Source: Bacillota bacterium (GTDB lineage Bacteria > Bacillota > Clostridia > TANB77 > CAG-465). From it: a stretch of DNA of 64,000 nt. The position numbers and the translations under genes were made by a program. The DNA lies in NCBI GenBank assembly GCA_023410645.1, contig JAEYPQ010000030.1, positions 11,680 to 75,679 on the forward strand, written 5' to 3'. A model generated the notes under the pieces. It had not been told where the DNA came from. It did no database searches and saw only the letters and a list, made by a program, of their open reading frames with translations. This document shows positions 18,298 through 53,453 of this stretch, piece after piece (the first letter of the stretch is position 1; each line of letters begins with the position of its first letter).

Positions 18298-18642
18298 ATG
18301 GGGAGAACTTATACGGTACCAAGAAGTGTAAAAGGTGAATCTAGATTATTATATATATTTTCAATAAGATCTTTTGTTTCTACTGTTGTATTTGGATTTG
18401 TGGGCTTTTTGATAGGAAGTTTGCTTTCACTTGTTGGAGCTAGTGGTTTAATTAAAGTTATAATGACTGCTGTCTTTGGAATAATTGGATATGGAATGGC
18501 AACACTAGTAATTCCGGATACACCTATTGTTGGAAACTTAAGAAAAGCTGGTGGAGAGCAGGTCGGTGAAATTTTACTTAGAATTATAACTTTTAAAAGA
18601 AGAAAGAAAATATATATTTATAGATATGGGGGAGATAAATAA
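18298..18642 (+). CDS. PrgI / VirB3-like small two-TM protein (114 aa)
   Basis: Size, position immediately upstream of the VirB4-like region, and two adjacent TM helices (VVFGFVGFLIGSLLSLVGA, IKVIMTAVFGIIGYGMATLVI) match the VirB3/PrgI/TcpE-like component of Gram-positive T4SS. Confidence 0.45.
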   Translation: MGRTYTVPRSVKGESRLLYIFSIRSFVSTVVFGFVGFLIGSLLSLVGASGLIKVIMTAVFGIIGYGMATLVIPDTPIVGNLRKAGGEQVGEILLRIITFKRRKKIYIYRYGGDK

Positions 18643-19958: not shown

Positions 19959-19971
19959 GAGGTAAAATACA

Positions 19972-21945
19972 ATGGGAAAAGATAAAAAAAATAAAAAAGG
20001 TAATAACACTCAAGAAGAACTTGTTAGAGCTAATGAAGAAAGTGTTAATTTTCTAGAATCAAATAAATCAAATTTAAAAGACTTAATATCACCTGCTGGA
20101 ATAGATGCAAGTCATTATGATTATATGGAGATATTCTCTAAAGTGTCTAGATATATTAGAACTTTCTATGTTACAACTTTACCTAGACAAGCATCTTTCC
20201 CTTATTTCTTATCAAATATATATGAATTTGGGGATGTAAATACTTCAGTATTTATAACTCCTATTTCGGAAACTGCATCACAAAGAGATTTAAATAAAAC
20301 TATTGTTGAGTTACAATCCGAAAGGTATGTTGCAGCAGATAGGGGAGATATAAATAGAGCGGCAGTTCTTGCAACTAAGCAATCTGAGGCTGAGGAGTTA
20401 AGAGATCAAATTGCTGCTGGATATAATAAACTATTTGAAGCTACAATTGTTGCTAGTTTATTTGCATATAGTAAAAATGAGCTTGATAAAGCATCTGAAC
20501 TTCTAGCAATGGAAGCTTCAAAAAATATGGTTGGAATAAAAGCTACTTGGGCAATGCAAGAAGAGGCTTTTCAAAGTAACCTACCTCTAAATAAAAATAA
20601 ATTAAATAGAAAACATACTTTTGATAGAGGGTCAATGGCAACAGTTTTTCCTTTTGTTTCTTCGGAAGTTGGACATGATATTGGTGTACCTATTGGAATA
20701 AATAAACAAACTGGATTACCTCTATTGTTTGATAATTTCCACTCTTCTCTTAATAATTATAATATGATAATATTTGGAAAATCTGGATCTGGTAAATCTG
20801 TTACAATTAAAACAATTATGGCAAGATCTTCAGTATTAATGGGAGTTGAAAACTTAGTTATAGATGCTGAAGGAGAATATTCAGTGGTTGCTGAGTCATT
20901 AAATGGAATAAATATAGTAATAAGTCCAAACAGTAATACAATAATAAACATATTCGACATCGAGCCAGAAACAGTAAAAGATGAAATAACTGGTAGGGAA
21001 AGAATAGTTTTAAATGTTGAAAATAAGGTTGAGGATGCAACACAATCTTTATTAACAATGGCTCGTGGTGCTACTAGAAGTCAGGAAGTAAATGAACTTA
21101 CAAAGCAGATAATTGCAGAAATAGTTGCAGAATTATATGCAAGAAGGAAAATTAAAAGTGATATAAATTCACTATATGAAGATGCAAATGAGTTAAATGT
21201 AACAAATAATTTTGTTGGTCTTAAGAAAAAAGAAATGCCGACAATAGGTGATTGGTATGATGTACTTGTAGAAAAAGCATCAGAAAATACCACAGAAACA
21301 TATGCATATCATTATAATTATTTACTTAAAGTAATGAAACAATATTGTAAAAAATTTGATGGTCAAATGTCTTATTTTGATGGTCAATCAACTTTTGAAT
21401 TGATGGATGGTAATCAATTTATAAATCTTAATCTTTCTCAACTTGAAGAAAAATTTGCAAGACCTTTGGCACAGCAAATACTCCTTTCTTGGGTATGGGA
21501 AAAGTATGTTAAGAAAAATAGCGAAAATAGAACTAAGGCAAGAAGAAAAAGGGTTCTTATAGATGAGGCATGGATGTTACTTGATTATCCTGAAGCAGTT
21601 CAATTTTTAAATACAATGGCAAGACGTGCTAGAAAAAGAAATGTTTCTCTTGCAGTTGTATCACAGAAATTCCAAGATTTCTATGAAAAGAAAGAAGCAC
21701 AAGCAGTTTTAACTTCTTCTGATACAAAATTATTTTTGGCTCAAGATAAATCTGAAATTGAATACTTAAAAGAAGTATTTAAATTAAGTGAAGGAGAAAC
21801 AGATTTCTTACTTACATGTTCAAGAGGTGAAGGTCTTATACGTATAGGTCAAGAATCAGCGGTAATTGCTATACAGCCAACACAAAAAGAATTTGAATTT
21901 GTTGAAACAAATTTGACAAATATAATTGCGCGTAAACAAAGCTAA
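19972..21945 (+). CDS. VirB4-family T4SS ATPase (TraE/PrgJ/TcpF-like, 657 aa)
   Basis: Walker A IFGKSGSGKSVT. Walker B in RVLIDEAWMLLD, the DEAW hallmark of VirB4/TrbE/CagE. N-terminal motif RTFYVTTLPRQASFPYFLSNIYEFGDVNTSVFITPI matches the conserved FYV..LP...W/FL....d.s.hI.P block of Gram-positive VirB4. Length matches pIP501 TraE-type VirB4. Confidence 0.8.
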   Translation: MGKDKKNKKGNNTQEELVRANEESVNFLESNKSNLKDLISPAGIDASHYDYMEIFSKVSRYIRTFYVTTLPRQASFPYFLSNIYEFGDVNTSVFITPISETASQRDLNKTIVELQSERYVAADRGDINRAAVLATKQSEAEELRDQIAAGYNKLFEATIVASLFAYSKNELDKASELLAMEASKNMVGIKATWAMQEEAFQSNLPLNKNKLNRKHTFDRGSMATVFPFVSSEVGHDIGVPIGINKQTGLPLLFDNFHSSLNNYNMIIFGKSGSGKSVTIKTIMARSSVLMGVENLVIDAEGEYSVVAESLNGINIVISPNSNTIINIFDIEPETVKDEITGRERIVLNVENKVEDATQSLLTMARGATRSQEVNELTKQIIAEIVAELYARRKIKSDINSLYEDANELNVTNNFVGLKKKEMPTIGDWYDVLVEKASENTTETYAYHYNYLLKVMKQYCKKFDGQMSYFDGQSTFELMDGNQFINLNLSQLEEKFARPLAQQILLSWVWEKYVKKNSENRTKARRKRVLIDEAWMLLDYPEAVQFLNTMARRARKRNVSLAVVSQKFQDFYEKKEAQAVLTSSDTKLFLAQDKSEIEYLKEVFKLSEGETDFLLTCSRGEGLIRIGQESAVIAIQPTQKEFEFVETNLTNIIARKQS

Positions 21946-21951
21946 TTAAGA

Positions 21952-22929
21952 ATGGGTGATGAAATGATTAAATTAAAGAATAAGAAACATATACTAATGA
22001 TTACAATTATTATACTTATGATAGTAGCATTAAATGTATTACCATTTAGTAACATTCATGCATATACGAATGATGCACCTCAGGCATCAGATGCTGAAAA
22101 TCTAGTAAAAGGTGCTATAGGATGGATATTATCCACTGGTGCTGGAGTTTTGGCTACTCCAATAACTTATGTTATAAATATGGTTAATGTTGTAATATTT
22201 AGCATTCTATATACTGTATTTGTAGGTTCTAAGATTGTAGATACTATATTTTCATTTCCAACACCTGATAATGTAATTTTTAATAGAATAGGCTTTTTTG
22301 ACCCTAATTTTATTAATCCTACCCCTGTAGAGAGTGCACCGGTAGTACAAATAAAAACTGTAATTCAAAGTCTATATTATTCTTTCTTTACAGTAGCAAT
22401 AACAATATTTGTTATTGCAGCACTTGTTATTGGAATAAAGCTTGCACTATCTACAATAGCTTCTGAAAAAGCTCAATTTAAGAATGCATTGAAAAATTGG
22501 GTTATGGGTATAGTTTTATTATTTACAATACATTTTGTCATGGCAGGAATTTTTGCAATAAATGAAGAGATAGTTAAAATTGCATCTAACTATGCTGGAG
22601 ACAATATTAGTTTTAATATACAAGTTACTTCTGGAATTCCTGTGGTAGGAAATGCACTGTCTAGTATTATAAGAGGATTTAGTGATTTAATTGGAAGTAA
22701 TAATCCAATTGATGCTTTTCAAATGAATGGATATTTAGGATTAATAATACAATTTTTAGTTAAGTCAGTTGGTGGAGATTTATTATCTTCAATAGCACTT
22801 ACGATAATTTTATTCCAGACTGTTGCGATAGTTGCTATGTATATTAAAAGACTATTTTATTGTATAATCCTTGGAGTAATAGCGCCTCTTGTTGTAGCAG
22901 CAGATGTAGTAAAGAAATCTATAGGTTAA
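21952..22929 (+). CDS. Polytopic membrane protein, VirB6/TrbL-like candidate (325 aa)
   Basis: Signal/TM at N-terminus, then at least 5 TM helices with short loops. Positioned right after the VirB4-like gene as in Tn916/ICEBs1/pCW3-type loci. No catalytic motif. Confidence 0.4.
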   Translation: MGDEMIKLKNKKHILMITIIILMIVALNVLPFSNIHAYTNDAPQASDAENLVKGAIGWILSTGAGVLATPITYVINMVNVVIFSILYTVFVGSKIVDTIFSFPTPDNVIFNRIGFFDPNFINPTPVESAPVVQIKTVIQSLYYSFFTVAITIFVIAALVIGIKLALSTIASEKAQFKNALKNWVMGIVLLFTIHFVMAGIFAINEEIVKIASNYAGDNISFNIQVTSGIPVVGNALSSIIRGFSDLIGSNNPIDAFQMNGYLGLIIQFLVKSVGGDLLSSIALTIILFQTVAIVAMYIKRLFYCIILGVIAPLVVAADVVKKSIG

Positions 22930-22941
22930 AGGAGGATTAAT

Positions 22942-24081
22942 ATGGGAGAAAAAAATAATAAAAAGGGATTATTTGAAAATTGGTTTTCCATGTTTGTTTC
23001 CAATGTTTTTATACAAAGCTTTCAAGCAGTATTTTTAATGTTTCTATTGCAATTTATAGCAGGGGTACAAAAATCAAATGCATCTGATATGCTTATTGCA
23101 TTATTAACTATTGCTGGACTTGCTGGTATAATTAAATTTGAAAAATTAGTCCAAGAAATATTTCAAATTAAAGAATCTAAAAGTGGTAGTTTCGGTAGAA
23201 ACTTCTATAGAACTATGCAGGGTATAAAAAGTGGTTCTGATCTAGTAAGTAGAACTTCAGAGCCTTTTAAAAACTATGCAAATGTTAAGAGAAATAGAAT
23301 TAAATTAGACAATGAAATAGCGGCAAGAAAAATCACTGATAAACCAAAAACTCAGGATAGTGGTGTTGGTACTAGTACAGGTGGTACAGGTGCTACAGTT
23401 CAAGGCACTGCTGCAAGTCAAATCTTAAATCCTCAATCTGGAGGGACTGCTAGACAAATTGTAGACGCTAATGGAAATCCTATTTCAAGTGGAAGATTTT
23501 CAACTGGACCAGTTGTTGCAGCTAGTTCTAATGGACAAAATATTTCAGGTGGAAGTTTTGAAAAAATGGAAGCTAGCTTAGACAGATTAGCAAAAATTAT
23601 GGAAAAGAGTACTGGAGTTTCTGATAATTCTTCTAAATCGATACCAGAGTTAGAAAAACAAAGAGATGAATTAAAACTTCAAGAATCTAAATTAGGAATG
23701 CAAAGATTTACTAGACTTGGAACAACGCTTGCTGCTGTTGGTGGAGCTTTTGGCGCAAATGATGGAGATTTTGGGGAGGCTATGACTCTTGCAAATGTTG
23801 TTGATAAACCTTTGGATTCTGCAAGTGACAAGATGATTAATAGTAGGGTTTATAAACCAAGATACAAAGAGGCACTCCAAGAGTATAACCAAGCTATACA
23901 AACAAAAAGCCCTGATGCTATGGAAGCATTCAAAAAACTTGAATCAGCAAGTAAAACAATGCATAATTCACTTGCAAGAGAAGCTGAAGATTTTGCTAGA
24001 AGCGCCGTAAATTCGTTTACACCTTCTAAAGAAGCAAGAAAAAAGCGTAGAGTAGATATTGATAGTATAGATGTAATTTAG
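22942..24081 (+). CDS. Membrane protein with two N-terminal TM helices, Gly/Thr/Ser-rich linker and C-terminal coiled coil (379 aa)
   Basis: RBS AAAGGAGG before the ATG. Low-complexity segment GVGTSTGGTGATVQGTAASQ. Coiled-coil C-terminus. No recognisable enzymatic motif. Confidence 0.35.
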   Translation: MGEKNNKKGLFENWFSMFVSNVFIQSFQAVFLMFLLQFIAGVQKSNASDMLIALLTIAGLAGIIKFEKLVQEIFQIKESKSGSFGRNFYRTMQGIKSGSDLVSRTSEPFKNYANVKRNRIKLDNEIAARKITDKPKTQDSGVGTSTGGTGATVQGTAASQILNPQSGGTARQIVDANGNPISSGRFSTGPVVAASSNGQNISGGSFEKMEASLDRLAKIMEKSTGVSDNSSKSIPELEKQRDELKLQESKLGMQRFTRLGTTLAAVGGAFGANDGDFGEAMTLANVVDKPLDSASDKMINSRVYKPRYKEALQEYNQAIQTKSPDAMEAFKKLESASKTMHNSLAREAEDFARSAVNSFTPSKEARKKRRVDIDSIDVI

Positions 24082-24091
24082 GAGAGTTTAT

Positions 24092-24670
24092 ATGTTTAAA
24101 CAATTAAATAAAGGAACTAATATAATAATTATAGTAGTATTTGCACTTGCCTGTTTGAGTTTTATTATAAATGCCATTATAGGTATATTTAAAAAACCAG
24201 AGTTATTGAATACTGATGATATAACTCAATATATAATAACTGATAATGTTGTTGATGAAAATGGAAATATAACAAAAGCTTCTAATATAGTTAAAGATTA
24301 TAATACTTTTTACACTTTGCAAGATGCTACTGAAAACTTTATACAATATATAGTCGATCAAAAATTTTCTCAAACATATAGTGTACTTTCTGATGAAATT
24401 AAAAGTAAATATTCTAAATCAGAGTACGAAGATAAGATTAAAGTTGTATATGATAAAAACTTTTCAGTCACTTATAGTGATGAGAATATAAAAAATGGAC
24501 AAGATAATGGAATTAATAATTTTAATAACTCAAATAATTTGGTAAATTTATATAAAATATCTGAAAATGAATATATTTGTGAGACTAAGAATGTACATTC
24601 AAAAATTTTTAAACTAGGTATAAGATTGGAAAATAATAATACATATAAAGTTTTTTATATTGATTTTTAA
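24092..24670 (+). CDS. N-terminally anchored extracytoplasmic protein (192 aa), possible VirB8-like scaffold
   Basis: Single N-terminal TM (IIIIVVFALACLSFIINAIIGIF) followed by a soluble mixed alpha/beta domain. Role inferred only from context. Confidence 0.3.
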   Translation: MFKQLNKGTNIIIIVVFALACLSFIINAIIGIFKKPELLNTDDITQYIITDNVVDENGNITKASNIVKDYNTFYTLQDATENFIQYIVDQKFSQTYSVLSDEIKSKYSKSEYEDKIKVVYDKNFSVTYSDENIKNGQDNGINNFNNSNNLVNLYKISENEYICETKNVHSKIFKLGIRLENNNTYKVFYIDF

Positions 24671-24680
24671 GAGGTGTTTG

Positions 24681-25556
24681 ATGGAAGAACAAAAAAATAG
24701 TAAAATAATATTAGGTTTATCCGCTATATTTATTTTGGTATTTGTGATTATTGCTATATTTGCATTAGTACAAATATGGAAACCTAAAGACAATACTGAA
24801 GAAAAAATTGTTTTATCGTCTAGTAATGATAAAATAGGTACATATAAGAAAATTAAGTATACTGAAAATCAGCAAATTTCCCAGTATATAACTCTTGTCA
24901 CTAATGCTATTGTTAGTAGTGATACTGATAAATTATATTCTATGTTAAATGAGGAATATAGAGATTATTTTAGCATTGATAAAACAAAAGCAGAAAACAT
25001 TTTTAAGACAAGAGGATTTCTTGGAAGAATGTTAACTTCTGACAAATATACTAAGGCTACAATAGATGGTAGAAGCATTTATATAGTTCCTTTAAAGACT
25101 TCCGTAAATGGAGCAATATATGATAATGTGATAATAACTGAATATTCACCAAGAAAATTTTCTATTGCTTTTGATGATTTCCTTACTTATGATAAATCAG
25201 AAAAAGTATATTATAGAGATGAACTTAAATTAGTTGTATATAATAAAGTTAATTTTATAACTTCGGTAAGTGCTAAAGTTAAGATTACAAATTTATCAGA
25301 TGAGAGAATAACAATAAATGATTCACACAAATATGAGAATTTCTACATAAGATTTAATGATCAAAGCGAAGTATTAACAAATTTGAGCTTTTTATCTGGT
25401 GAATCTTATGAGATGATAAAAAATCAGGAATTGGCTTTTGATGCTTCTTTTGAAATTCCTGCATTATCTCATCAGGCAATAAATTCATATGTATTAAAAG
25501 ATGTTAAATATATGAAAAATGGTGCCACAAAAGATTTAGAATTTAATATAAAATAG
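24681..25556 (+). CDS. N-terminally anchored extracytoplasmic protein (291 aa), possible VirB8/TcpC-like
   Basis: ATG at 24681 follows GAGGTG (24671-24676); the six-frame ORF opens at 24660. Single TM (ILGLSAIFILVFVIIAIFALV) then a soluble domain. Size and topology are like TcpC/VirB8-like proteins, by inference. Confidence 0.3.
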   Translation: MEEQKNSKIILGLSAIFILVFVIIAIFALVQIWKPKDNTEEKIVLSSSNDKIGTYKKIKYTENQQISQYITLVTNAIVSSDTDKLYSMLNEEYRDYFSIDKTKAENIFKTRGFLGRMLTSDKYTKATIDGRSIYIVPLKTSVNGAIYDNVIITEYSPRKFSIAFDDFLTYDKSEKVYYRDELKLVVYNKVNFITSVSAKVKITNLSDERITINDSHKYENFYIRFNDQSEVLTNLSFLSGESYEMIKNQELAFDASFEIPALSHQAINSYVLKDVKYMKNGATKDLEFNIK

Positions 25557-25595
25557 GTAGTTTGTTTGCTATATAAAAAAGCGAGGTGATATTAT

Positions 25596-28500
25596 TTGGA
25601 CGATTTTGAAAAAGAGTACGAAGAAGAGCTACTTAGACAACAACAAGAAGAACAAAGAAATCAAGATATAAATATTAGGGATACATATGATAAATTAAAA
25701 AGTGCACAAGAAAAATACCAAAAACTTTCTGACAAAATTAATAGTTCAAATAATAATCTTAAACAAGGCTCTTTAAATAGAGATGCAGCAAATAATATAA
25801 ATAAATCAGCTGGAAAAAAAGCTACTGAGCAAGGTGCTAAATCAGTAAGTAATGAAGCTGCTAAGAGTGCTGGAAAAGAAGCTGCAAAAACTGCTGGAAA
25901 AGAGGCTGTAAAAAAAACTGGTGAAGAAGCTGCGAAAGAGGCGGGGAAGCAGGTAGCAAAAACTGCAGCAAAAGAAGCAGCTAAAAAGGGAGCTGAAACT
26001 GCTGCAGCTGGTACAGGAGTTGGTATACCTATTGCTGCTGCAATTGAGGCTGCTGACCAGGCACAAAAGCTAAAAGTAAAAGCAGAAGAAAAAATAAAGG
26101 AAACTACTGGAATAGATTTAAAAGAATCAAGAAAAAAGAGGAGAAAAATTGTCATAGCATTAGCACTTAGTTTGTTATTTATACTTTTAACGACAAATTA
26201 TGTTTCGAGTCAAGATTTAAATACTACACTTAAATCTTTAATTGCTAGAAGAGAAGCAAGAAATGAAAAGAAGTTAATACAATTTACAGATTCCGAATAT
26301 GATGATTTAATAAACAAAGATTATGTAGATTTACCATCAGGTTACTCTGATAATTCTGTAAATGATGAAAAGTATGCAGATCCAGGTTATAAAAGAATGC
26401 TCGAATATGCATATAGTAATAATTATGATTCTTTTTTAGCTGGTAAAACTACTATAGATAATCAGACAAAAAAAAGCGAAGTTGCTGCAAGTAACACAAG
26501 AAAATATTTAGAAGCAGAAAGACTTAATTTCAATAAAATAAAATGGTATTCATACAAAAGTAACTATACATATAATCATTCATCAAGTTTAGCAAACGAT
26601 GTTGTACCAACATTCTTAAATTCAAGTACAGGTTCAATTCAGGCAAATGGTAAAATTACGGATTCAGAGCTAAATATTCCAAAGTTATCTGAATATGACG
26701 TAAATCCAGGAAGTAATACAAAGCAAAAAGAAGATATGTATATTGATTTACTATCAAATTATATGCAAAAATGGTTTATTCCATATTTAATGATGATTGA
26801 TACGCAGTCAAAGGAATTTACAATTAATGAAGTAATGGAAAAAATGTATAGTCCTGTTAACGTAACTTTATACCAGATTAATAGAGATACCAAAAAAACG
26901 AAAACTACTTACTACCTAGAGTGTGAGGTAGTTATTAGGACAATTACAACTACGATTGGACCTAATGGTGAAATAAGTACCAGTTCACATATTTCAGACA
27001 GAAGAAATTCTAATACTAAGAATGATCCTGTTGGAACAACTAGTTATAATAATGGTAATACTACAATAGAAAAGACAGTAACTTCAAATGGTAAAATTGC
27101 AACTGATTCTTCTGGAAATCCTATGGTAGCATCTGTTACTGTTGAAAGAAATATATCACCATATAAGTATGTACCTAAGATAACTTATTGCGAGGGATTT
27201 TATGATATAATAAGTGCAAGATACAAAATTGATCCTATAAATGAGGCAATAACTCCAAAAAGCACATCTGAAACGCCTCTTACATCGTCGGATGCTAATA
27301 CTTCATATATTACAAAGACTGAGATTTGGGATGAAAATATATTAAATGATGTATATGAAAAGAAAGATTATAAAGTCTCATACTATTCAGATGAAGATTA
27401 TAAGAACTTGGGAAGAAAAGTATCAAGAGTTGAATGGTATCAAGATTATGGAAATTATTTATATAAATCTGGAAAATCTGATGTTGATTTAAAGATCTAT
27501 GACAATGAGATATATCCATTAAAAGTTACAAATAAAGGTGAAACTATTGATGGATATCAAAATGATTATTTATTGAGTTTAGAAGAAGCCTATGACTCAT
27601 ACTCAAATTCAAAAGGATATTCGTATGATGATATGTATTTTGCATATACATTAATAAGTGAATATTATAGTAATATAAATAGTCTTGGAAGTGATGTAAA
27701 TTTAAATTTAAATGGTATACCTTATGATGGATTTGCTTGGCCAGTTGAGATAACAGCAGAAAATCCAGGTACTAATGTTATAAATACACTTTTTGGACTT
27801 ACACCAGCTTATGGAAGTAGTCATACTGGAATAGATATATCAAGTGGAAATCTAAGATATAAGGAAGGAAACTTAACTAAAGGACCTAAAATTTTGGCGG
27901 CACATGATGGAGTTGTTACAGCTGTTTCTAACACTGCCACATCTGATTCAGTATATGATTCTAGCACTGGTCAATTTACTTATATATCACCATATAACTT
28001 TGTAAATATTAGAACACAAGATGGCACTTATACAACTCAATATGGGCATTTATCTGAAATTAATGTTAAGGTAGGAGATACTGTAAAAAGGGGACAAGTT
28101 ATAGGAAGGATGGGTACAACTGGTTATTCTACGGGAGTTCATTTGCATTTTGAGATAATAGATTCTACTGGTGAAAGACTAGATCCTTTGAATTATTATA
28201 TTACAGATCCAGAATATGGAAGTATTAACCGTAACTCAATAACTTCAATGCCAAGTGGTTATGTATATTTAAGGCCTAAGACATTTAGTATATCTGGAAA
28301 TTCACAAATTTCTGATATGATAGCAAAGGCTATAGAATTAGCAAATAAAAAGAATATTTTATATAGACAAAACGGAAGACAAACGGCTAGCACTATAGTT
28401 GGATTAGATAATATTACTCAGGCAGATTGTAGTTCATTTGTATATTCTTTATTTAAAACATACTTAAATATAAACGTCGGAATGACTTCTGATGATATAA

Positions 28501-29183
28501 AAAGTAGAGGCGATAATAAGCATTCTGAAAATGGTTGGACTGCCGAATCAGGAGCCATAAATTCTGATTATTCTAAACTTCAACCAGGTGATATATTATG
28601 GCGCAGTGGACACGTTGGACTATATGTTGGTGATGGAAAACAAGTTGATCTTGGTGGTCCTGGAGGGGAAAATTCTGAAGCAGATCCTAATTGGAAAGGG
28701 CCAATTTATGATACAGACATAGATGGCTATACACATTATATAAGATATGTGAATAAAAATGCATTAAATGGAGTTAGTGCAGAAGATATCTTATTAATGT
28801 CTAGAATTATTGCACAAGAAGCTGGATACAATATGGAAGATTGTTTAGCTGTTGCAGCTGTAATTGTTAATAGAGTAAAAAGTCAAAGCAATGATTTTAA
28901 AGATGAAGACACGGTTCGCAAAGTTATTTATCCTGCAGGAGATGATATGGCTAAAAATAGATTGCAATGGGCATCAATAGGTGGAGTAGAATTTAATAAA
29001 GAACCTGATAAGAGTAAGGCACCGTATAAAGCTGCATTAATGGCCATAGCTGGTGAAGATCCAACAGGAGGAGCACTATATTTCTATAGTCCAAGAGGTG
29101 GATTTTATAGTGAATGGCATGAATCCTTAAAATATTTGTATACGTCACCAAATGGTCAAAGATTCTTTACACCAGAAGAATAG
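25596..29183 (+). CDS. Multidomain peptidoglycan hydrolase (VirB1/PrgK/CwlT analogue, 1195 aa)
   Basis: N-terminal coiled coil plus Lys/Ala-rich degenerate 8-aa repeats (AGKEAAKT-like, 25800-26000). One TM (IVIALALSLLFILLTT), then a large extracytoplasmic region. M23 domain: HTGIDISSG, AAHDGVVTAV, YGHLSE, GVHLHFEI. NlpC/P60 domain: ADCSSFVYSLF with Cys, GHVGLYVGDG with His. SleB-type cell wall hydrolase (Hydrolase_2) domain: LMSRIIAQEAG...LAVAAVIVNRVKS...GGALYFYSP. Confidence 0.75.
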   Translation: MDDFEKEYEEELLRQQQEEQRNQDINIRDTYDKLKSAQEKYQKLSDKINSSNNNLKQGSLNRDAANNINKSAGKKATEQGAKSVSNEAAKSAGKEAAKTAGKEAVKKTGEEAAKEAGKQVAKTAAKEAAKKGAETAAAGTGVGIPIAAAIEAADQAQKLKVKAEEKIKETTGIDLKESRKKRRKIVIALALSLLFILLTTNYVSSQDLNTTLKSLIARREARNEKKLIQFTDSEYDDLINKDYVDLPSGYSDNSVNDEKYADPGYKRMLEYAYSNNYDSFLAGKTTIDNQTKKSEVAASNTRKYLEAERLNFNKIKWYSYKSNYTYNHSSSLANDVVPTFLNSSTGSIQANGKITDSELNIPKLSEYDVNPGSNTKQKEDMYIDLLSNYMQKWFIPYLMMIDTQSKEFTINEVMEKMYSPVNVTLYQINRDTKKTKTTYYLECEVVIRTITTTIGPNGEISTSSHISDRRNSNTKNDPVGTTSYNNGNTTIEKTVTSNGKIATDSSGNPMVASVTVERNISPYKYVPKITYCEGFYDIISARYKIDPINEAITPKSTSETPLTSSDANTSYITKTEIWDENILNDVYEKKDYKVSYYSDEDYKNLGRKVSRVEWYQDYGNYLYKSGKSDVDLKIYDNEIYPLKVTNKGETIDGYQNDYLLSLEEAYDSYSNSKGYSYDDMYFAYTLISEYYSNINSLGSDVNLNLNGIPYDGFAWPVEITAENPGTNVINTLFGLTPAYGSSHTGIDISSGNLRYKEGNLTKGPKILAAHDGVVTAVSNTATSDSVYDSSTGQFTYISPYNFVNIRTQDGTYTTQYGHLSEINVKVGDTVKRGQVIGRMGTTGYSTGVHLHFEIIDSTGERLDPLNYYITDPEYGSINRNSITSMPSGYVYLRPKTFSISGNSQISDMIAKAIELANKKNILYRQNGRQTASTIVGLDNITQADCSSFVYSLFKTYLNINVGMTSDDIKSRGDNKHSENGWTAESGAINSDYSKLQPGDILWRSGHVGLYVGDGKQVDLGGPGGENSEADPNWKGPIYDTDIDGYTHYIRYVNKNALNGVSAEDILLMSRIIAQEAGYNMEDCLAVAAVIVNRVKSQSNDFKDEDTVRKVIYPAGDDMAKNRLQWASIGGVEFNKEPDKSKAPYKAALMAIAGEDPTGGALYFYSPRGGFYSEWHESLKYLYTSPNGQRFFTPEE

Positions 29184-29197
29184 GGGAGTAGAAGTAG

Positions 29198-30028
29198 ATG
29201 AATGAAAAAGATGATATAAAGTTTAATAAAAATAATAGTGGTGTTCATAAAAGAACACCACGAAAAATAAAATATTCTTTGGAACAGTTAGAACAAATAA
29301 AAAAAGAAGAACAAGTATTAGATATGTATGTTGAAAGCATTGATGATAGTCTGAATATGATAGGTATTGTAGGGACAGATATAAAAGCGATGATACCAAG
29401 AGATGAAGCTTCAAGTATTGTTGGAGATGATGGACTAGTTGAAGAAAAATTTATTGTTAATAAAAAAGGAAAAATAATACCTACATGTATAAAAGAAATA
29501 ATAAAAAATGGTGATAATATTGAATTGATATTGTCAAAGAAGATACTTGAACTTAAAGTAAGACGTTGGATGTATATGCATTTGAAACCAGGTATGAAAC
29601 TTAAAGGTGTTGTTGTAAGTACTACTGAATATGCAGCTTTTGTTGATGTTGGTGGAGGAGTAACAGGTATATTAAAATTATCTGATATTTCTGATGTATC
29701 ATTACAACATTCTAATGATGTTTTTAAATTAGGTCAAAGAATAGAAGTTATGGTAAAGAAATTCGATAGAGATACTGGAAGAATTGAATTAACATATAAA
29801 GAATTGTTAGGTTCTTTTGAAAACAATGTTAAAAATCTAAAAGAGGGAGACATTGTTGACGGTATTATACGAAATAGAATTAAGACTGGTGTGTTTGTTG
29901 AATTAAAACCTAATCTTGTTGGTCTTGCTGAACATGTTAATGGAGTGGAATATGGACAAAAGGTACTAGTTAGTATAAAAAGAATTATTCCAGAAAAGAA
30001 AAAGATTAAACTTGTAATCATAGGATAA
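29198..30028 (+). CDS. S1 RNA-binding domain protein with tandem S1/OB repeats (276 aa)
   Basis: Two clear S1 modules: MKLKGVVVSTTEYAAFVDVGGGVTGILKLSDIS...RIEVMVKKFDRDTGRIELTYK and EGDIVDGIIRNRIKTGVFVELKPNLVGLAEHVNGVEYGQKVLVSIKRII. Starts 15 nt after the hydrolase stop, so probably co-transcribed. Confidence 0.55.
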   Translation: MNEKDDIKFNKNNSGVHKRTPRKIKYSLEQLEQIKKEEQVLDMYVESIDDSLNMIGIVGTDIKAMIPRDEASSIVGDDGLVEEKFIVNKKGKIIPTCIKEIIKNGDNIELILSKKILELKVRRWMYMHLKPGMKLKGVVVSTTEYAAFVDVGGGVTGILKLSDISDVSLQHSNDVFKLGQRIEVMVKKFDRDTGRIELTYKELLGSFENNVKNLKEGDIVDGIIRNRIKTGVFVELKPNLVGLAEHVNGVEYGQKVLVSIKRIIPEKKKIKLVIIG

Positions 30029-30140
30029 ATAAAGTTTAGTAAGTAAATATATTAATTTGATATATTTACTTACTTTTTTTTGACAAAGTATTGATTTTTA
30101 GGTAATAATATGTTATTATATTAAAGTACTTGAAATACAT

Positions 30141-30217
<77 letters not shown>

Positions 30218-43501: not shown

Positions 43502-43507
43502 TAAAAA

Positions 43508-43549
43508 ATACTTGAAGTATGAAAATTAAATACTTCAAGTATTTTTTTA
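43508..43549 (+). terminator. Rho-independent terminator
   Basis: ATACTTGAAGTAT - loop - ATACTTCAAGTAT perfect 13-bp stem followed by TTTTTTT. Confidence 0.75.
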
Positions 43550-43610
43550 TTTCTACAAGTAGTAAACTTAATCAATAAAAATTAATATAATAAAAGTAGA
43601 GGTGTTTAAA

Positions 43611-43679
43611 ATGGAAGATCAAATTGATGTAATGGACATTCAAGGTGTCGAAATGGAAAGCGCAGAGAGCGAGGGATAG
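43611..43679 (+). CDS. Candidate 22-codon acidic micro-ORF (MEDQIDVMDIQGVEMESAESEG) coupled to the downstream lysin gene
   Basis: ATG is 6 nt after AGAGGTG. Its stop TAG lies 2 nt before the ATG of the M23 gene, and its last codons form that gene's RBS (GAGGGA). The ORF is locally GC-richer. Below the ORF-track size cut-off. Confidence 0.2.
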   Translation: MEDQIDVMDIQGVEMESAESEG

Positions 43680-43681
43680 AT

Positions 43682-44389
43682 ATGGCATATATAACTAAAT
43701 TACCATTTGAAGGAGTATTTAAGGTAACGTATCCCTATGGTGTAAAAGATTCAAACTATAAATCAGGGTATCATCAAGGAATAGACATGGGAAATTCACA
43801 AAGACCAGAAGTATACTCTATTAATACTGGAGTGGTATCTTATGCAGGATGGGAGAATATAAACAATAAAAGTCAAGGATTTGGCCTTTATGTATCAGTT
43901 AAATTTGATGTAACATCTGCTGGATATAAGAAAGTATTTTATGGACATTTAAATGAATTAAGGGTTAAGGTTGGTCAGCAAGTTAGTAATCCAACAATAC
44001 TTGGTATAATGGGAAGTACTGGCTTTAGTACAGGACCTCATACACATGTTGAAATTAGAGAGTATGATAGCAATAATAATATTATTAAAATTTTAAATCC
44101 AGCTTCATATATGGGAGTTCCAAATGTTGTAGGAACTTATGATAGTGCAAATTATAGAATAGAATTAGGAAATAATTCAAAATACACTACAGGAAGATAT
44201 AAAGTAACTGCAAAAGAAGGATTAAATGTAAGAAGTGGTCCAGGAACTCAAAATGGAAAAATCTCAAATGCAAGATTTCCAAATGGTGCTTATCCATACG
44301 GTCAAGTATTTGACGTATTTGAAGTAAAAGGTAATTGGGGAAGAACACCAAGTGGATGGGTAAGCCTTGATTATAGTTCAAAAATGTAG
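43682..44389 (+). CDS. M23 peptidase with C-terminal SH3b-like domain, no signal peptide (lysostaphin/endolysin-like)
   Basis: M23 motifs YHQGIDMG, YGHLNE and GPHTHVEI. The C-terminal ~70 aa (RYKVTAKEGLNVRSGPGTQNGKI...GWVSLDY) matches the SH3b cell-wall-binding pattern. No N-terminal hydrophobic segment. Confidence 0.7.
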   Translation: MAYITKLPFEGVFKVTYPYGVKDSNYKSGYHQGIDMGNSQRPEVYSINTGVVSYAGWENINNKSQGFGLYVSVKFDVTSAGYKKVFYGHLNELRVKVGQQVSNPTILGIMGSTGFSTGPHTHVEIREYDSNNNIIKILNPASYMGVPNVVGTYDSANYRIELGNNSKYTTGRYKVTAKEGLNVRSGPGTQNGKISNARFPNGAYPYGQVFDVFEVKGNWGRTPSGWVSLDYSSKM

Positions 44390-44554
44390 AAATTTAAATT
44401 TCTACATTTTTTTATTGAAATTTAACTAAAAACTGATAAATATAAATGATTGTTGACATAAAAGCAAAAATATTGTATAATATATATTAGATTTTTATAT
44501 GTAAGTTATACAATTGTTAACTTTTTGATTATTAAAAAATAGGAGGATTAAAAA

Positions 44555-46219
44555 ATGAAAAGATTAAAGATTCTAGTTATGGTAATGTTGGTAGCAGTTC
44601 TTATTTCCCAGCCAATTTTTGCTGAAGCACAGACAATCTATTATGGCGAGGAGGGCGTTGATGAACGGTCAGGAATCACATGGTTTCAAAATCCCAATGT
44701 AAGTGAGACTATTGGACAATGTATAACAGCAAATGAGCTAATCAGAGAGCAAATAGTGGCAGATAATGGCGGAACTATTACACGCAAATCTATTTCAAAA
44801 TTTGATGATGCTAATGATCTGACTTCTAAAGAACGCGAATATGCAGAAAGAGCATATTCACTTGGCGCATTATTTACTCAATCCAATAGAATAAATTGGG
44901 ATAGCCCGATAACAAAAGGTAAGGCAGCACAAATCAATTATGTATATGGAAAGAAAGTATTTAAATTTAGCTATATATACGGAAGTAAAACATTCACAGA
45001 TATCAGTAAAAAGAGTACTTTATACACACCAGCAGTATACTCATATAGAACTGGAATATTAAAGGCTCCTGGAACTAAATTTGTACCAAATTCTAATTAT
45101 ACAATTGGAAAAGGACTTGAAATAAGATATAGATATTTGGTATCCAGTGATCTTGTTAAAGAAGAGTATATAAAGAGTGCATACGAGGAAATTTTTAATT
45201 GTACTTTTGATAATTATGATGATTCAACACCATCTATACCATCAACACCATCAAGCACAGATACAATAATACAGGTTGGTGGATATTTCGTATCGTATAT
45301 GCCTGACAACAGAGATTATGAATTTTCTATTGTAGATAATAATATAGCATATATATCTGAAATATCATATAATGCCAATTATAATAAGGTAGCAACAGTA
45401 AAGGGACTTAATCCTGGAACAACAACGTTAGAGATAAGTTATAATAGCAAAGTTGTCTCAAGAATAAAAATAACTGTAAAATCAAAAGTGGATTATTTAC
45501 AGATATATGATTTTCAGTTAAAAGTTGGAGAAAGTCAAAAAATATATCCGAATTATAATTGGACTAGTGATACTCCAGTTTTTAAATGGAGTAGTAGTAA
45601 TACAAAAGTAGCTACAGTTGATCAAAACGGTAATATTGCTGCCAAGTCAGTAGGAACGGCGAAAATAAAAGTTGTAGCTAATGATTTAGTAGAAGCTACC
45701 TGTACTGTAACAGTATATAATAATTACTCAAGTATAACTTTATCTAATACAAATGTAACTATGAATATATACAATTACTTTACTTTAAGTGCACAAACAT
45801 ATCCGAATAATCAAAGTGTTTATTGGAGATCCACTAATGAAAGTATACTCACCGTGGATTCAAATGGTGGCGTTTATGCTGTAGGGTACGGTACTGCTGA
45901 GATAATTGCAACATCCGCTTATGGTGATTCAGCAAAGTGTAAATTCAATATTAATCCTGATTATAATAGCTTAAGAGATATTTGGATAATATCAGATTTC
46001 ACTACAATATACACTGGTGAGCAAAAATATTTGGATTATGGAACTGATCCTGGTTATGTACCGAATTTAGTTGTTAGCTGGTATAGTAGTGATAATACTA
46101 TTGCCACAGTTGATAAAAATGGTAAGGTTACAGCCAAGAATACTGGTAATGTGACCATAACGTGTGTCTCAACTAATGGTAAATCAGATACCATAAATAT
46201 AACTGTAAAAAAGAGATAA
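44555..46219 (+). CDS. Secreted protein with C-terminal tandem bacterial Ig-like (Big_2) domains
   Basis: Signal peptide MKRLKILVMVMLVAVLISQPIFAEA. Three Big_2-like repeats of the form VATVD.NG.V.A...GTA.I. Strong RBS AGGAGG. Confidence 0.55.
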   Translation: MKRLKILVMVMLVAVLISQPIFAEAQTIYYGEEGVDERSGITWFQNPNVSETIGQCITANELIREQIVADNGGTITRKSISKFDDANDLTSKEREYAERAYSLGALFTQSNRINWDSPITKGKAAQINYVYGKKVFKFSYIYGSKTFTDISKKSTLYTPAVYSYRTGILKAPGTKFVPNSNYTIGKGLEIRYRYLVSSDLVKEEYIKSAYEEIFNCTFDNYDDSTPSIPSTPSSTDTIIQVGGYFVSYMPDNRDYEFSIVDNNIAYISEISYNANYNKVATVKGLNPGTTTLEISYNSKVVSRIKITVKSKVDYLQIYDFQLKVGESQKIYPNYNWTSDTPVFKWSSSNTKVATVDQNGNIAAKSVGTAKIKVVANDLVEATCTVTVYNNYSSITLSNTNVTMNIYNYFTLSAQTYPNNQSVYWRSTNESILTVDSNGGVYAVGYGTAEIIATSAYGDSAKCKFNINPDYNSLRDIWIISDFTTIYTGEQKYLDYGTDPGYVPNLVVSWYSSDNTIATVDKNGKVTAKNTGNVTITCVSTNGKSDTINITVKKR

Positions 46220-50235: not shown

Positions 50236-51837
50236 TTGGCAGTAAAAAGACAATCATTCATGAATGGTGTTATTATAATAATGGTATCTCAAGTACTTAT
50301 AAAATTACTTGGTTTCATATATAGAATAGTACTTACAAATTTTAAAGAATTTGGTGATGTAGGTAATAGCTATTATGGATCAGGATATACTGTTTACACA
50401 CTAATTTTAGCCGTTGCGACAATGGGTATACCTAATACAATTTCAAAATTAGTATCTGAAAAAATAGCAGTTGGAGATAGAAGAGGTGCTCATAAAATAT
50501 TTAGAACTGCAATGTCTTTATTTACTCTAATTGCAATAGTATTTTCAGTAACACTATTTTTTAGTTCTGGATTTATTGCAGAAAATATATTAGCAAATCC
50601 TGGTGTTAAATATACGCTAATGTCACTATCACCAGCGATAATATTTGTAGCAATGTCTGCAGTATTACGTGGCTATTTCGTTGGTATGCAAAATATGATG
50701 GAATACAGTAAAGCACAAATATTAGAACAAATTATAAATAGTGTATTTTCAATATTGTTCGTTGTAATGCTATTTGGATCAACACCAGAAATAATGGCTG
50801 CTGGATCAACACTTGCAACAACAGTTTCAACATCAACTGCATTTTTCTATTTATTAAATTATTATAATAAAAATAAAAAAGATATATGGAAAGATATAAA
50901 AGAATCAGAAAAATTTGCACTTGATTCTAGAAATAAAATAATAAAAAAATTAATATCATATGTTATTCCAATTTCATTTGGAAGTGTTGTTGTGGCATTA
51001 TCTGGAGTTATTGATACAGTTACAGTAATGAATGGACTTCAACAATTTGGCTTAACGATTAATGAGGCAAATGAACAATTTGGTATATTACTTGGAAAGG
51101 TAGATATATTAAATGCAGTTCCACTTTCGATTAATGTAGCATTTTCCGTTGCACTTGTACCTTTTATATCAGCTGCAATTGCAAGAAATAGGAAAAATGA
51201 AGCAGTACATAAAATTAAGTTTTCAATTAAAATATCTTCTATAATCGCACTACCTTGCACAGCAGGTTTGTTTTTACTTGCACCACAAATTTTTGATTTA
51301 ATATTTCCAAATGCAACAGCAGGTGCATATCTTCTACAAATACAATGTTTTATGATACCTTTTGCTGTAATATCACAAACATTATATGGATCTCTACAAG
51401 GTATAGGAAAATTATATGTCCCAGGCGCTTGTTTATTAATAGGTGCAGTGCTTAAATATACACTAAATGTAATATTTATACCTATTTATGGAATATCAGT
51501 TCCTGCAACTACAACAGTGATATATAATGCTTTAGCATGTATATTAGCTTTCACAATATTATTTAAGAATTTGAAGGAAAAACCTAACTTAAAAGAGATA
51601 TTTTTACGACCAATATTAGCTACATTATCAATGAGTTTTGTGATAATTTTAAGCAAAAAAGTGTTAGATTACATAAGCATAAGAAATAGTGTGGAAACAA
51701 TCTCTATTATTGTAATCTCAGTTGTTACATATTTCTTATTTATATTGATTTTTAATGTATTAAGTAAAGAGGAAATGAAACAGCTACCTTATGGTAACAA
51801 GATATGTCAAGTTGTTGAAAAAATAAAAAAAATATGA
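50236..51837 (+). CDS. Oligosaccharide/polysaccharide flippase-family (MOP; SpoVB/MurJ-like) membrane protein
   Basis: 533 aa, about 14 TM helices. The N-terminal region (GFIYRIVLTNF...GYTVYTLILAVATMGIPNTISKLVS) is typical of SpoVB/polysaccharide-biosynthesis (Wzx-like) proteins. Start uncertain: TTG 50236 vs ATG 50260. Confidence 0.55.
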   Translation: MAVKRQSFMNGVIIIMVSQVLIKLLGFIYRIVLTNFKEFGDVGNSYYGSGYTVYTLILAVATMGIPNTISKLVSEKIAVGDRRGAHKIFRTAMSLFTLIAIVFSVTLFFSSGFIAENILANPGVKYTLMSLSPAIIFVAMSAVLRGYFVGMQNMMEYSKAQILEQIINSVFSILFVVMLFGSTPEIMAAGSTLATTVSTSTAFFYLLNYYNKNKKDIWKDIKESEKFALDSRNKIIKKLISYVIPISFGSVVVALSGVIDTVTVMNGLQQFGLTINEANEQFGILLGKVDILNAVPLSINVAFSVALVPFISAAIARNRKNEAVHKIKFSIKISSIIALPCTAGLFLLAPQIFDLIFPNATAGAYLLQIQCFMIPFAVISQTLYGSLQGIGKLYVPGACLLIGAVLKYTLNVIFIPIYGISVPATTTVIYNALACILAFTILFKNLKEKPNLKEIFLRPILATLSMSFVIILSKKVLDYISIRNSVETISIIVISVVTYFLFILIFNVLSKEEMKQLPYGNKICQVVEKIKKI

Positions 51838-52342: not shown

Positions 52343-52429
52343 GCCGAAATGGTGGAATTGGCAGACGCGCTAGACTCAAAATCTAGTGGTAGCAATACCG
52401 TGTGGGTTCGAGTCCCACTTTCGGCACCA
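52343..52429 (+). tRNA. tRNA-Leu (anticodon CAA), long variable arm, CCA encoded
   Basis: Acceptor GCCGAAA/TTTCGGC, anticodon stem CTAGA/TCTAG with loop CTCAAAA, variable-arm stem GGTA/TACC, T-arm GTGGG-TTCGAGT-CCCAC. Followed by hairpin GATGAAG...CTTCATC plus T-run (52440-52467). Confidence 0.85.
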
Positions 52430-52492: not shown

Positions 52493-53296
52493 ATGATATA
52501 TTTAAAAACTTTTAAACTTAGTGATAATAGAAGTAAAAATTATAATATATATCCATATAATGTGTTAAGAGGTAAAGAACCTGATATTTTTATATTTGAT
52601 AATATAACTGTTTTATATGGTAATAATGGTTCAGGAAAATCTACAATTTTAAATATAATTGCTAATAAATTAAATTTAAATGGAAAAGATAAGATACCTT
52701 GTCAGAGATTTTTTAATGAATATATATCTTTGTGTGAATATAGTTTAGGAAATGATGAATACGGTAAAGTAATTAAAATGATACCTAATGAAAGTAGATA
52801 TATTAAGAGTGAAGAATTATTATATGAGGTTAGTAAAATACAAAATAATAGTATTTTAGAAGAAAGTTATATATTAAATAAAGTTAAAGAGGGCATGGAT
52901 GAAGAAAAGGCTAAAGAATCTATTTATACTAAACAAGGAGTGAAAGAGCTAGAAAATATAAGATTTGCACAAGAAAAATATTCCAATGGTGAAACTGCTA
53001 TGCAGTGCCTTGTTGATAAATTAGAACCAGATAAATTATATTTATTAGATGAGCCAGAAGTATCGTTATCTATACAAAGTCAAATAGAATTAGCTAATAA
53101 TATAAATCATATGGCAAGATACTTAAATTGCCAATTTATTATATCAACTCATTCACCATTTATGCTGGGGACATTAAATGCAAAAATATATAATTTAGAT
53201 ACTAAGAATTATGATGTACAAAATTGGAATGAGCTTGAAAATGTAAAATTATTTTATAAATTCTTTAAAGATAAAGAAAATGAATTAAAAAATTGA
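52493..53296 (+). CDS. Stand-alone ABC-type / AAA_21-like P-loop ATPase (267 aa)
   Basis: Walker A LYGNNGSGKSTILN, Q-loop region, Walker B LYLLDEPEVSLS, H-loop ISTHSPF. No transmembrane partner or second domain. RBS GGGGGAG upstream. Confidence 0.6.
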   Translation: MIYLKTFKLSDNRSKNYNIYPYNVLRGKEPDIFIFDNITVLYGNNGSGKSTILNIIANKLNLNGKDKIPCQRFFNEYISLCEYSLGNDEYGKVIKMIPNESRYIKSEELLYEVSKIQNNSILEESYILNKVKEGMDEEKAKESIYTKQGVKELENIRFAQEKYSNGETAMQCLVDKLEPDKLYLLDEPEVSLSIQSQIELANNINHMARYLNCQFIISTHSPFMLGTLNAKIYNLDTKNYDVQNWNELENVKLFYKFFKDKENELKN

Positions 53297-53366: not shown

Positions 53367-53453
53367 GCCGAAATGGTGGAATTGGCAGACGCGCTAGACT
53401 CAAAATCTAGTGATAGCAATATCGTGTGGGTCCGAGTCCCACTTTCGGAACCA
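53367..53453 (+). tRNA. Degenerate second copy of tRNA-Leu(CAA) (probable pseudo-tRNA)
   Basis: First 47 nt identical to the copy at 52343. Four substitutions in the 3' half: variable-arm stem GGTA/TACC becomes GATA/TATC (compensatory pair), T-loop TTCGAGT becomes TCCGAGT (loss of U55), and acceptor 3' TTTCGGC becomes TTTCGGA (G1:A72 mismatch). Followed directly by TTTTTTG. Confidence 0.5.

Follow-up and report, generated by a model that had tools for sequence, protein, structure and literature searches.

A conserved, apparently translated micro-open reading frame precedes a clade of signal-less M23 lysins in prophages and chromosomes of mostly uncultured Clostridia

The stretch of DNA analysed here, referred to below as the window, comprises 64,000 nucleotides of a Bacillota bacterium and carries on its forward strand the gene of a 235-residue lysin, directly preceded by a 22-codon acidic open reading frame (ORF), the micro-ORF. 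Comparison of related loci indicates that the micro-ORF is a small gene conserved as a peptide, and that it accompanies the M23 zinc-endopeptidase domain of one lysin clade. The locus is laid out as follows.

43503–43547, forward strand: hairpin terminator of the upstream PCC-domain gene, an 18-base-pair stem followed by a T-run (−18.9 kcal/mol, z = −8.9 against shuffles)
43566–43592, forward strand: promoter-like element AC-N16-AATATAATA, including TATAAT at 43586–43591, its type assigned from the motif
43598–43604, forward strand: Shine–Dalgarno sequence of the micro-ORF, AGAGGTG (anti-Shine–Dalgarno duplex −10.0 kcal/mol)
43611–43679, forward strand: micro-ORF of 22 codons plus TAG (ATG at 43611, TAG at 43677–43679), encoding MEDQIDVMDIQGVEMESAESEG
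43671–43676, forward strand: Shine–Dalgarno sequence of the lysin, GAGGGA, within the final micro-ORF codons (anti-Shine–Dalgarno duplex −15.1 kcal/mol)
43682–44389, forward strand: lysin gene, 235 residues, isoelectric point 9.4, without a signal peptide by inspection
43769–44071, forward strand: M23 zinc-endopeptidase domain (residues 30–130 by Pfam; the fold covers approximately residues 5–150)
44219–44374, forward strand: C-terminal SH3b-like wall-binding domain (residues ~170–235; weak in Pfam, lysostaphin-like in the model)
44380–44411, forward strand: hairpin terminator overlapping the lysin stop codon, a 14-base-pair stem followed by a T-run (−12.4 kcal/mol, z = −6.6)

This layout agrees with an earlier sequence-only reading of the window, which had described a 22-codon ORF with its own ribosome-binding site, a stop codon two nucleotides before the lysin ATG at 43682 and a 3′ end forming the ribosome-binding site of the lysin; the peptide, however, contains eight acidic residues and not the nine then counted. 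The reference for the anti-Shine–Dalgarno duplexes is a median of −9.1 kcal/mol over 35 window genes. No alternative start codon lies between the upstream in-frame stop and the lysin ATG. The micropeptide carries a net charge of −8 and the lysin a net charge of +8, so that the two are complementary. Because T-run hairpins close both the PCC-domain gene and the lysin gene, the micro-ORF and the lysin form an independent transcription unit, of which the hairpin at 43503–43547 is the 5′ boundary. Both bracketing hairpins are AT-rich and were overlooked by the promoter/terminator scanner, since that scanner demands G+C-rich stems.

Homologous DNA, 2.47 Mb in total, was drawn from exact-match contigs and from collections of genomes, viruses and metagenomes. 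Wherever the lysin of a recovered locus reached 52% identity or more, it was preceded by a short acidic micro-ORF with its own Shine–Dalgarno sequence. The end of this micro-ORF falls anywhere from 14 nucleotides before the first base of the lysin start codon to 7 nucleotides past it (a gap of −8 to +13 nucleotides). The stop and start codons overlap as ATGA or TAATG in 12 loci and are 2–13 nucleotides apart in the remaining ones. Start, Shine–Dalgarno sequence and stop are intact in ~28 of ~28 loci, from at least five lineages and several contexts, and strong Shine–Dalgarno sequences of −9 to −16 kcal/mol were found on both the micro-ORF and the lysin in 18/18 loci tested. The 19 distinct micropeptides, of 17–37 residues, align on an invariant Met and a core of the form I-[DE]-x-M-[DNE]-x-x-[AG]-x-E-M-E, with D, N or E following the invariant Met in all of them; MNEERIETMDDIAKEVEE, MDGEIEKMDDFAEMEDIEK and MNDEKEIIETMDDIAPEMEE are examples of relatives of the window peptide. 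When the core was searched as a regular expression in six frames through the 2.47 Mb of fetched loci, it matched at lysin-leader sites only. A degenerate-DNA scan of IMG/VR for I-E-[TK]-M-D-D-[IVF]-A gave 23 matches, among which the micro-ORFs were the two already known prophage loci, the remaining matches sitting inside long ORFs. The micro-ORF is absent upstream of 36 distant M23 lysins (33–45% identical) and upstream of the lysins of loci L250 and L252 (45–49% identical).

These comparisons show the micro-ORF to be a real, translated-looking gene, as judged from its conserved amino-acid sequence. The sequence-only reading had left it between a leader peptide, an immunity or inhibitor peptide and noise, and had counted a lack of conservation at orthologous loci against itself; the micro-ORF is conserved there, and in the paralogous loci as well without exception, and the reading as noise is therefore dropped. 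Standard gene callers annotated just the two longest micro-ORFs, of 35 and 37 residues. A description of a micro-ORF upstream of an endolysin was not found in the literature, and this micropeptide partner of a lysin, a new element, does not appear to have been described before.

The pattern of substitution separates constraint on the peptide from constraint on the RNA. Within the 12-codon core, the third codon positions are the most variable (summed entropy 8.2/8.0/11.8), and the ratio of non-synonymous to synonymous differences (pN/pS) of the micro-ORF is 0.14–0.2 in close pairs. Synonymous-codon identity is 0.60 (49/82) in the micro-ORF and 0.59 (1008/1700) in the lysin M23 domain of the same gene pairs, a similarity that leaves no room for added nucleotide-level constraint. 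The conservation of the micro-ORF, as read from these substitutions, acts on the peptide and not on the RNA. A structured-RNA leader or riboswitch was considered and rejected: shuffled versions of the window leader fold just as well (z = +0.37), RNAalifold predicted no conserved base pairs in 12 diverse leaders, and Rfam returned nothing on the leaders except hairpin noise at the terminators. Minus-strand ORFs running across the micro-ORF were likewise rejected, being an unconserved by-product of the purine-rich plus strand.

These observations have to be weighed against the view that the micro-ORF acts only in cis, either as a coupling or leader element working through termination and reinitiation or through an acidic nascent chain that slows or destabilizes the ribosome, in which case it would set the amount or timing of the lysin and the peptide itself would be functionless. 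Such a view is favoured by the overlapping or closely spaced stop and start codons, by the placement of the lysin Shine–Dalgarno sequence inside the micro-ORF, by a length of 17–25 codons, which is usual for bacterial leader peptides, and by the faster evolution of the peptide than of the lysin in some pairs, such as the window and L004; moreover, the lysis genes of phages are often under translational control. However, the lysin has its own strong Shine–Dalgarno sequence in every locus, so that re-initiation is not needed, and no RNA structure that would mask it, conserved or otherwise, was found. What is conserved is a specific hydrophobic and acidic core pattern and not composition alone, and the distance of this core from the stop codon (9–17 residues) and from the start codon (7–27 residues) varies, which makes it a poor fit to a fixed stalling geometry. 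The leader and arrest peptides ErmCL, TnaC and MgtL resemble the micro-ORF in being short upstream ORFs of ~17–25 codons with conserved residues, located beside the gene that they regulate, but they employ alternative RNA structures or terminators together with a fixed stall site, whereas the micro-ORF leaders have no predicted structure, an unmasked strong downstream Shine–Dalgarno sequence and variable core-to-stop spacing. We regard a purely cis-acting role as the main rival of the favoured reading given below, and as less probable than it.

The reading frames bear on a further possibility, a single pro-enzyme split in two, of which the micro-ORF would encode the N-terminal piece and stop-codon read-through or frameshifting would connect this piece to the lysin. 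In favour of it, micro-ORF and lysin share a reading frame in L004 and L005, with one stop and 1–3 codons between them, and N-terminal pro-regions are frequent in M23 enzymes (PMC9662197). In the other loci, however, the two are out of frame or overlapping (+1, ATGA or TAATG), and this variation in relative frame excludes a read-through or frameshift fusion as a general mechanism. In addition, the stop codon may be TAA, TAG or TGA and neither a slippery nor a read-through context is conserved around it, every lysin keeps its ATG and Shine–Dalgarno sequence, and N-terminal extensions or natural peptide–lysin fusions (the Rosetta stone type of evidence) occur in 0/53 family proteins. A split pro-enzyme is accordingly highly improbable.

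The lysin itself belongs to known kinds, being an M23 endolysin of lysostaphin-like architecture. The sequence-only reading had assigned it a complete M23 active site, and this is borne out by Pfam PF01551 (E = 1.7e-18, 67.1 bits against a cut-off of 28.7) and by the zinc and catalytic residues H31-x3-D35, H89 and H120-x-H122, which are invariant among 30 homologues; the lysin profile matches LytM, lysostaphin and zoocin in the PDB. The C-terminal SH3b-like domain that had also been proposed is upheld by structure, with Pfam SH3_3 below threshold (17.5 bits against a cut-off of 27, E = 0.0046) and a precomputed PF08239 match present on some homologues. The AlphaFold model has a predicted local distance difference test score of 87.5, is all-β over residues 171–234 and aligns full-length with mature lysostaphin (4lxc, M23 and SH3b) over 254 columns with E = 2e-9. 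In Foldseek comparisons the model matched the catalytic domains of LytM, lysostaphin and EnpA with target-normalized template-modelling scores of 0.72–0.79; lysostaphin is the top full-length structural match, the top viral fold matches are phage peptidases of the same size, and PHROG matches are to phage peptidases and endolysins. A tblastn search of 50,697 isolate phage genomes gave no close relative of the lysin, the best matches being 27–35% identical and confined to the M23 domain.

The family recovered by protein search is compact, with 226–251 residues, or 213–251 residues when variants with another C-terminal module are included, and its members begin with M-x-YITKLPFEG and come almost entirely from uncultured Clostridia. 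By inspection, the N-terminus of the window lysin, MAYITKLPFEG, shows no hydrophobic segment, signal peptide or membrane anchor, in keeping with the earlier statement that these are lacking and with the lack of extensions in the family, and the M23 fold starts ~5–10 residues after the start, leaving no cis pro-region. Taken together, sequence and model show the lysin to be a predicted cytoplasmically made, lysostaphin-like M23 and SH3b peptidoglycan endopeptidase. In two homologous loci the lysin frame is disturbed with the micro-ORF kept, being broken after 22 codons in L177 and shifting near the C-terminus in L172; these breaks are either pseudogenes or assembly errors.

The resemblance to lysostaphin raises the question of whether the lysin is a bacteriocin of the lysostaphin or zoocin kind, aimed at competitors, and the micropeptide a small partner for immunity or export. 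That lysostaphin is the top full-length structural match, and that the pair stands alone between terminators without a holin, would suit such a role. However, a signal peptide, a cis pro-region, an adjacent transporter and a FemABX-type immunity gene are all absent (no FemABX-like domain was found by Pfam in eight flanking genes), and homologues with the same micro-ORF occupy ordinary prophage lysis cassettes after holins. To our knowledge, moreover, immunity to M23 bacteriocins takes the form of cell-wall alteration and not of a cytoplasmic acidic peptide. A bacteriocin is therefore very unlikely. Where the sequence-only reading had set an endolysin or a lysostaphin-like bacteriocin against a housekeeping secreted M23 enzyme, the endolysin is retained on the prophage homologues and fold matches, and the secreted bacteriocin finds no support.

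The partners of the micro-ORF across loci indicate what it is associated with. It precedes M23 lysins bearing four C-terminal modules, namely the window-type SH3b, a second SH3b type (L171–175 and L247), LysM (L276, with the micropeptide MDKDVIEMATEEEMASIGMNENEYMNDVALEGDEE) and an unrelated module (L176/L277). Since these modules differ, the micro-ORF is tied to the M23 domain or to the 5′ end of the gene and not to the wall-binding domain, and since the adjacent holin-like genes differ, it is not tied to any one holin. Gene order thus shows a genetic link between the micro-ORF and the M23 catalytic domain of this clade.

In the prophage homologues L005/L087, L088, L248 and L277, the pair follows tail-fibre genes and small membrane (holin-like) genes, with lysins of 57–66% identity; L005/L087 and L088 are on IMG/VR viral contigs, and L005 also lies near HNH and integrase genes. 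A lysis-cassette or holin context is partly present in L174 and L247. The clade is thereby shown, on gene neighbourhood, to occur both in prophages after putative holins and at fixed chromosomal sites. A conserved stretch of the form ATGGCTTAAAA..., ending in a T-run, lies between the holin genes and the micro-ORF or lysin in the prophage copies L005 (5796–5900), L088, L252 and L277; it has no Rfam match in L005 and is probably a terminator or regulatory element separating holin and lysin transcription. The two-transmembrane proteins of 62 residues (L174, 4740–4928) and 57 residues (L005, 5622–5795) encoded directly upstream of the micro-ORF match phrog_13256, annotated as of 'unknown function'; their position and topology suggest a holin family that has so far escaped annotation.

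In the window, the neighbours of the pair by Pfam are genes for PCC/PPC-domain, DUF998, Big_2 and PAP2 proteins. Neither a holin nor any other phage gene is adjacent in the Pfam neighbour scan, as the earlier reading, which had named the PPC-domain and Big_2 neighbours, had also noted, and three unannotated neighbours gave 0/3 matches against PHROG. The order DUF998-(PCC)-pair-Big_2-x-PAP2 is common to the window, L001 (lysin 92% identical) and L004 (77%). Other chromosomal settings include YqfD-...-DAGK-DUF3298-x-YtfJ-pair in L007 (by Pfam), with the same ORF order by size in L008, L168 and L170 and a near-identical lysin and leader in L009; SipL-YunB-XhlA-like-pair in L247; and a phrog_13256 holin followed by the pair near RuvA and FtsEX in L174. 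The ratio of non-synonymous to synonymous substitution rates (dN/dS) of the window lysin is 0.06 against L001 and 0.19 against L004, its syntenic orthologues, and within chromosomal lineages the range is 0.06–0.24, from which it follows that the chromosomal copies are working genes and not decaying remnants. To judge from synteny and substitution rates, several copies are chromosomal, inherited vertically and subject to purifying selection, and that of the window is among them.

The same data bear on the alternative that a prophage decayed in the window and left an inert lysin copy behind, with the micro-ORF a chance ORF in a purine-rich leader. No holin or other phage gene remains nearby in the window, and tRNA genes flank the 40–47.5 kb segment, as might be expected of such a remnant. 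The low dN/dS of the lysin against both syntenic orthologues, the intact micro-ORF in ~28 loci and its synonymous drift, which is like that of a coding gene, are at odds with it, and this alternative is close to refuted.

A strict sigma-K-type motif, AC-N16/17-CATAnnnTA, ends 16–19 nucleotides before the micro-ORF ATG in L007, L008, L009, L167 and L169, against a background of 0.04 per kb for the strict motif and 0.13 per kb for a relaxed one. In the window, L001 and L247 an element lies at the same place with A for the conserved C, ending 18 nucleotides before the ATG in the window, and the prophage copies have no sigma-K-type element at that position. Sporulation genes (YqfD, YtfJ, SipL and YunB) stand beside related chromosomal loci. 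In Clostridioides difficile, the −10 element is common to sigma-E and sigma-K promoters, with AC at −35 marking sigma-K, and sigma-K drives the mother-cell lysins CwlC and CwlH of Bacillus subtilis as well as candidate amidases of C. difficile (PMC3789822); one of these amidases, EndD/CD2184, is reported to be an endolysin encoded in the chromosome, dependent on sigK and responsible for toxin release (PMC13320862). Two further observations were made at these loci. A PhD/ParE toxin–antitoxin pair (4807–5374) lies immediately downstream of the micro-ORF–lysin operon in L247, and a divergent 75-residue two-transmembrane holin-like ORF (5344–5571, minus strand), with no PHROG match, lies ~370 nucleotides upstream of the micro-ORF in L007.

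The best explanation of the locus is that it represents a self-contained two-gene operon, made up of a putative promoter, the micro-ORF, the lysin and a terminator, which would derive from a phage lysis cassette. From comparison we infer a function for the micropeptide, and our favoured reading, to which we give a probability of about 0.45, is that it acts in trans on the lysin as a detached pro-peptide or chaperone and that programmed host lysis is the role of the chromosomal copies, expressed probably from a mother-cell promoter. The micropeptide and the lysin would be made together from one mRNA, as suggested by two strong ribosome-binding sites and by stop and start codons that abut or overlap. 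The peptide, with its net charge of −8, may then bind the basic lysin of net charge +8 in trans, and might occupy or mask the M23 substrate groove, with the D, N or E after the invariant Met as a candidate zinc ligand. The lysin would stay latent or soluble until the membrane is breached, whereupon the complex could be diluted or displaced at the wall. The host would have co-opted the operon in the chromosomal lineages, that of the window among them, and would use it, with transcription probably starting at a mother-cell promoter of sigma-K type, in programmed lysis for the release of spores or cargo. The most specific form of this proposal, in which a separate pro-peptide acting in trans docks in the M23 groove, ligates zinc through the D, N or E and holds the lysin latent until membrane rupture, is tentative and, taken by itself, rather unlikely.

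Several points weigh against the favoured reading. An inhibitor seems unneeded for a cytoplasmic lysin, because its substrate is outside the membrane; binding and inhibition of the lysin by the peptide enter as a proposal; and the window lysin has no nearby holin. The window promoter departs from the sigma-K consensus at the conserved C and can also be read as a sigma-A −10 element, TATAAT, with a poor −35. As to the sporulation capacity of the organism, the window genes scanned offer a single sub-threshold match, a SpoVB-like MATE-family protein at 50236–51837 (235.9 bits against an equivalog cut-off of 372). At the peptide level, pN is about equal to pS between the window and L004 (0.27/0.27), so that there the peptide evolves faster than the lysin and under weaker constraint; the window peptide has Gly where most relatives have Ala; and the acidic C-terminal codons are partly explained by the purine-rich Shine–Dalgarno sequence of the lysin embedded in them. 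An amphipathic-helix test was significant or borderline (at most 7% of shuffles equal) in six IETMDDIA-type peptides (L005, L007, L008, L168, L088 and L177), but the window peptide is not clearly amphipathic, as 95% of shuffles score equally, and the test is not relied on.

Known enzymes place the proposal of a trans-acting pro-peptide in context. Lysostaphin of Staphylococcus simulans has the two-domain M23 and SH3b architecture of the window lysin, and the zinc site of lysostaphin and LytM, with HxxxD, HxH and the catalytic His, is the same. The pro-region of lysostaphin is acidic. Both of these enzymes are secreted with a signal peptide and carry an inhibitory pro-region in the same chain, whereas the window lysin, ~22–30% identical to them, has no signal peptide and its acidic segment is a separate 22-codon gene. 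In LytM the zinc is blocked by the side chain of a pro-region Asn, and latency through a cis pro-region that reaches into the active site is common among M23 enzymes, this Asn switch and the occluding helices of Csd3 and ShyB being examples (PMC9662197). Masking of the groove by the micropeptide would be a counterpart of these in trans.

The M23 endolysins of phages, such as EnpA of an Enterococcus faecalis prophage, the lysin of phage 2638A and CwlP of SP-β, are signal-less like the window lysin, to which they are related by fold and PHROG matches; a conserved upstream micro-gene was not found in the literature for described M23 endolysins. Close homologues of the window lysin fill the endolysin slot after holin-like genes, whereas the window copy is an orphan without a holin, in a conserved chromosomal neighbourhood. 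Descriptions of endolysins from Gram-positive phages usually name a holin as the sole requirement, and dedicated protein partners are rare, Ms6 Gp1 and Mu releasin being examples. Ms6 Gp1 has ~77 residues, compared with 17–37 for the micropeptides. The likeness between the Ms6 Gp1–LysA pair and the present one is in gene layout, with a small gene abutting or overlapping the endolysin start; Ms6 infects a mycobacterial host and has an amidase lysin, whereas the window lysin is an M23 enzyme from an unrelated host. The small-protein gene of Ms6 lies immediately upstream of the endolysin gene and overlaps it, and Gp1 binds the lysin at its N-terminal region and is required for lysin stability or export and for efficient lysis, although its authors also weighed coupling across the overlapping stop and start codons (PMC3111421). 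Releasin of phage Mu likewise shows that endolysins can have dedicated regulators (PMC9239132).

For the chromosomal copies the nearest parallels are CwlC and CwlH and EndD/CD2184, chromosomal endolysin-like hydrolases produced in the mother cell late in sporulation that serve mother-cell lysis or toxin release (PMC3789822, PMC13320862). As the window copy lacks a lysis-cassette context, it is better termed a domesticated endolysin, like CwlC, CwlH and EndD. These three, however, are amidases with no reported micro-ORF partner, whereas the window lysin is an M23 peptidase, and the sigma-K dependence of the micro-ORF–lysin loci is suggested by motifs, of which that in the window is an imperfect match.

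Elsewhere in the window, a perfect sigma-70 consensus promoter, TTGACA-17-TATAAT (12/12), at 44453–44481 lies upstream of the secreted Big_2 gene (44555–46219), and transcription of this gene therefore does not depend on that of the lysin. A block of conjugative-element genes at 18298–30217, which includes a CD1110-family VirB4-like ATPase at 19972–21945 and a 1195-residue protein at 25596–29183 with an M23 domain and a SleB-like hydrolase domain, is probably an integrated conjugative element; tRNA-Arg (30141–30217) follows its genes. A pair of tRNA-Leu(caa) genes (52343–52429 and 53367–53453) flanks a 267-residue ORF at 52493–53296 and could be a duplication made by insertion.

In conclusion, a micropeptide gene too small for gene callers, and always found with one clade of M23 lysins, suggests a level of lysin control that has been hidden and could concern latency, folding or dosage. 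If the peptide inhibits the lysin, it would provide a natural off-switch for M23 enzybiotics and a new functional bacterial micropeptide. A pro-peptide acting in trans, if confirmed, would be the first case of a micropeptide dedicated to inhibiting or chaperoning an endolysin, conserved from prophages into sporulation-linked host lysis operons, in a gene organization resembling that of an antitoxin–toxin pair. The micro-ORF–lysin module is a clear case of domesticated phage lysis genes, and the chromosomal modules with sigma-K-type promoters beside sporulation genes are candidates for the mother-cell lysis machinery of uncultured Clostridia, which is poorly known.

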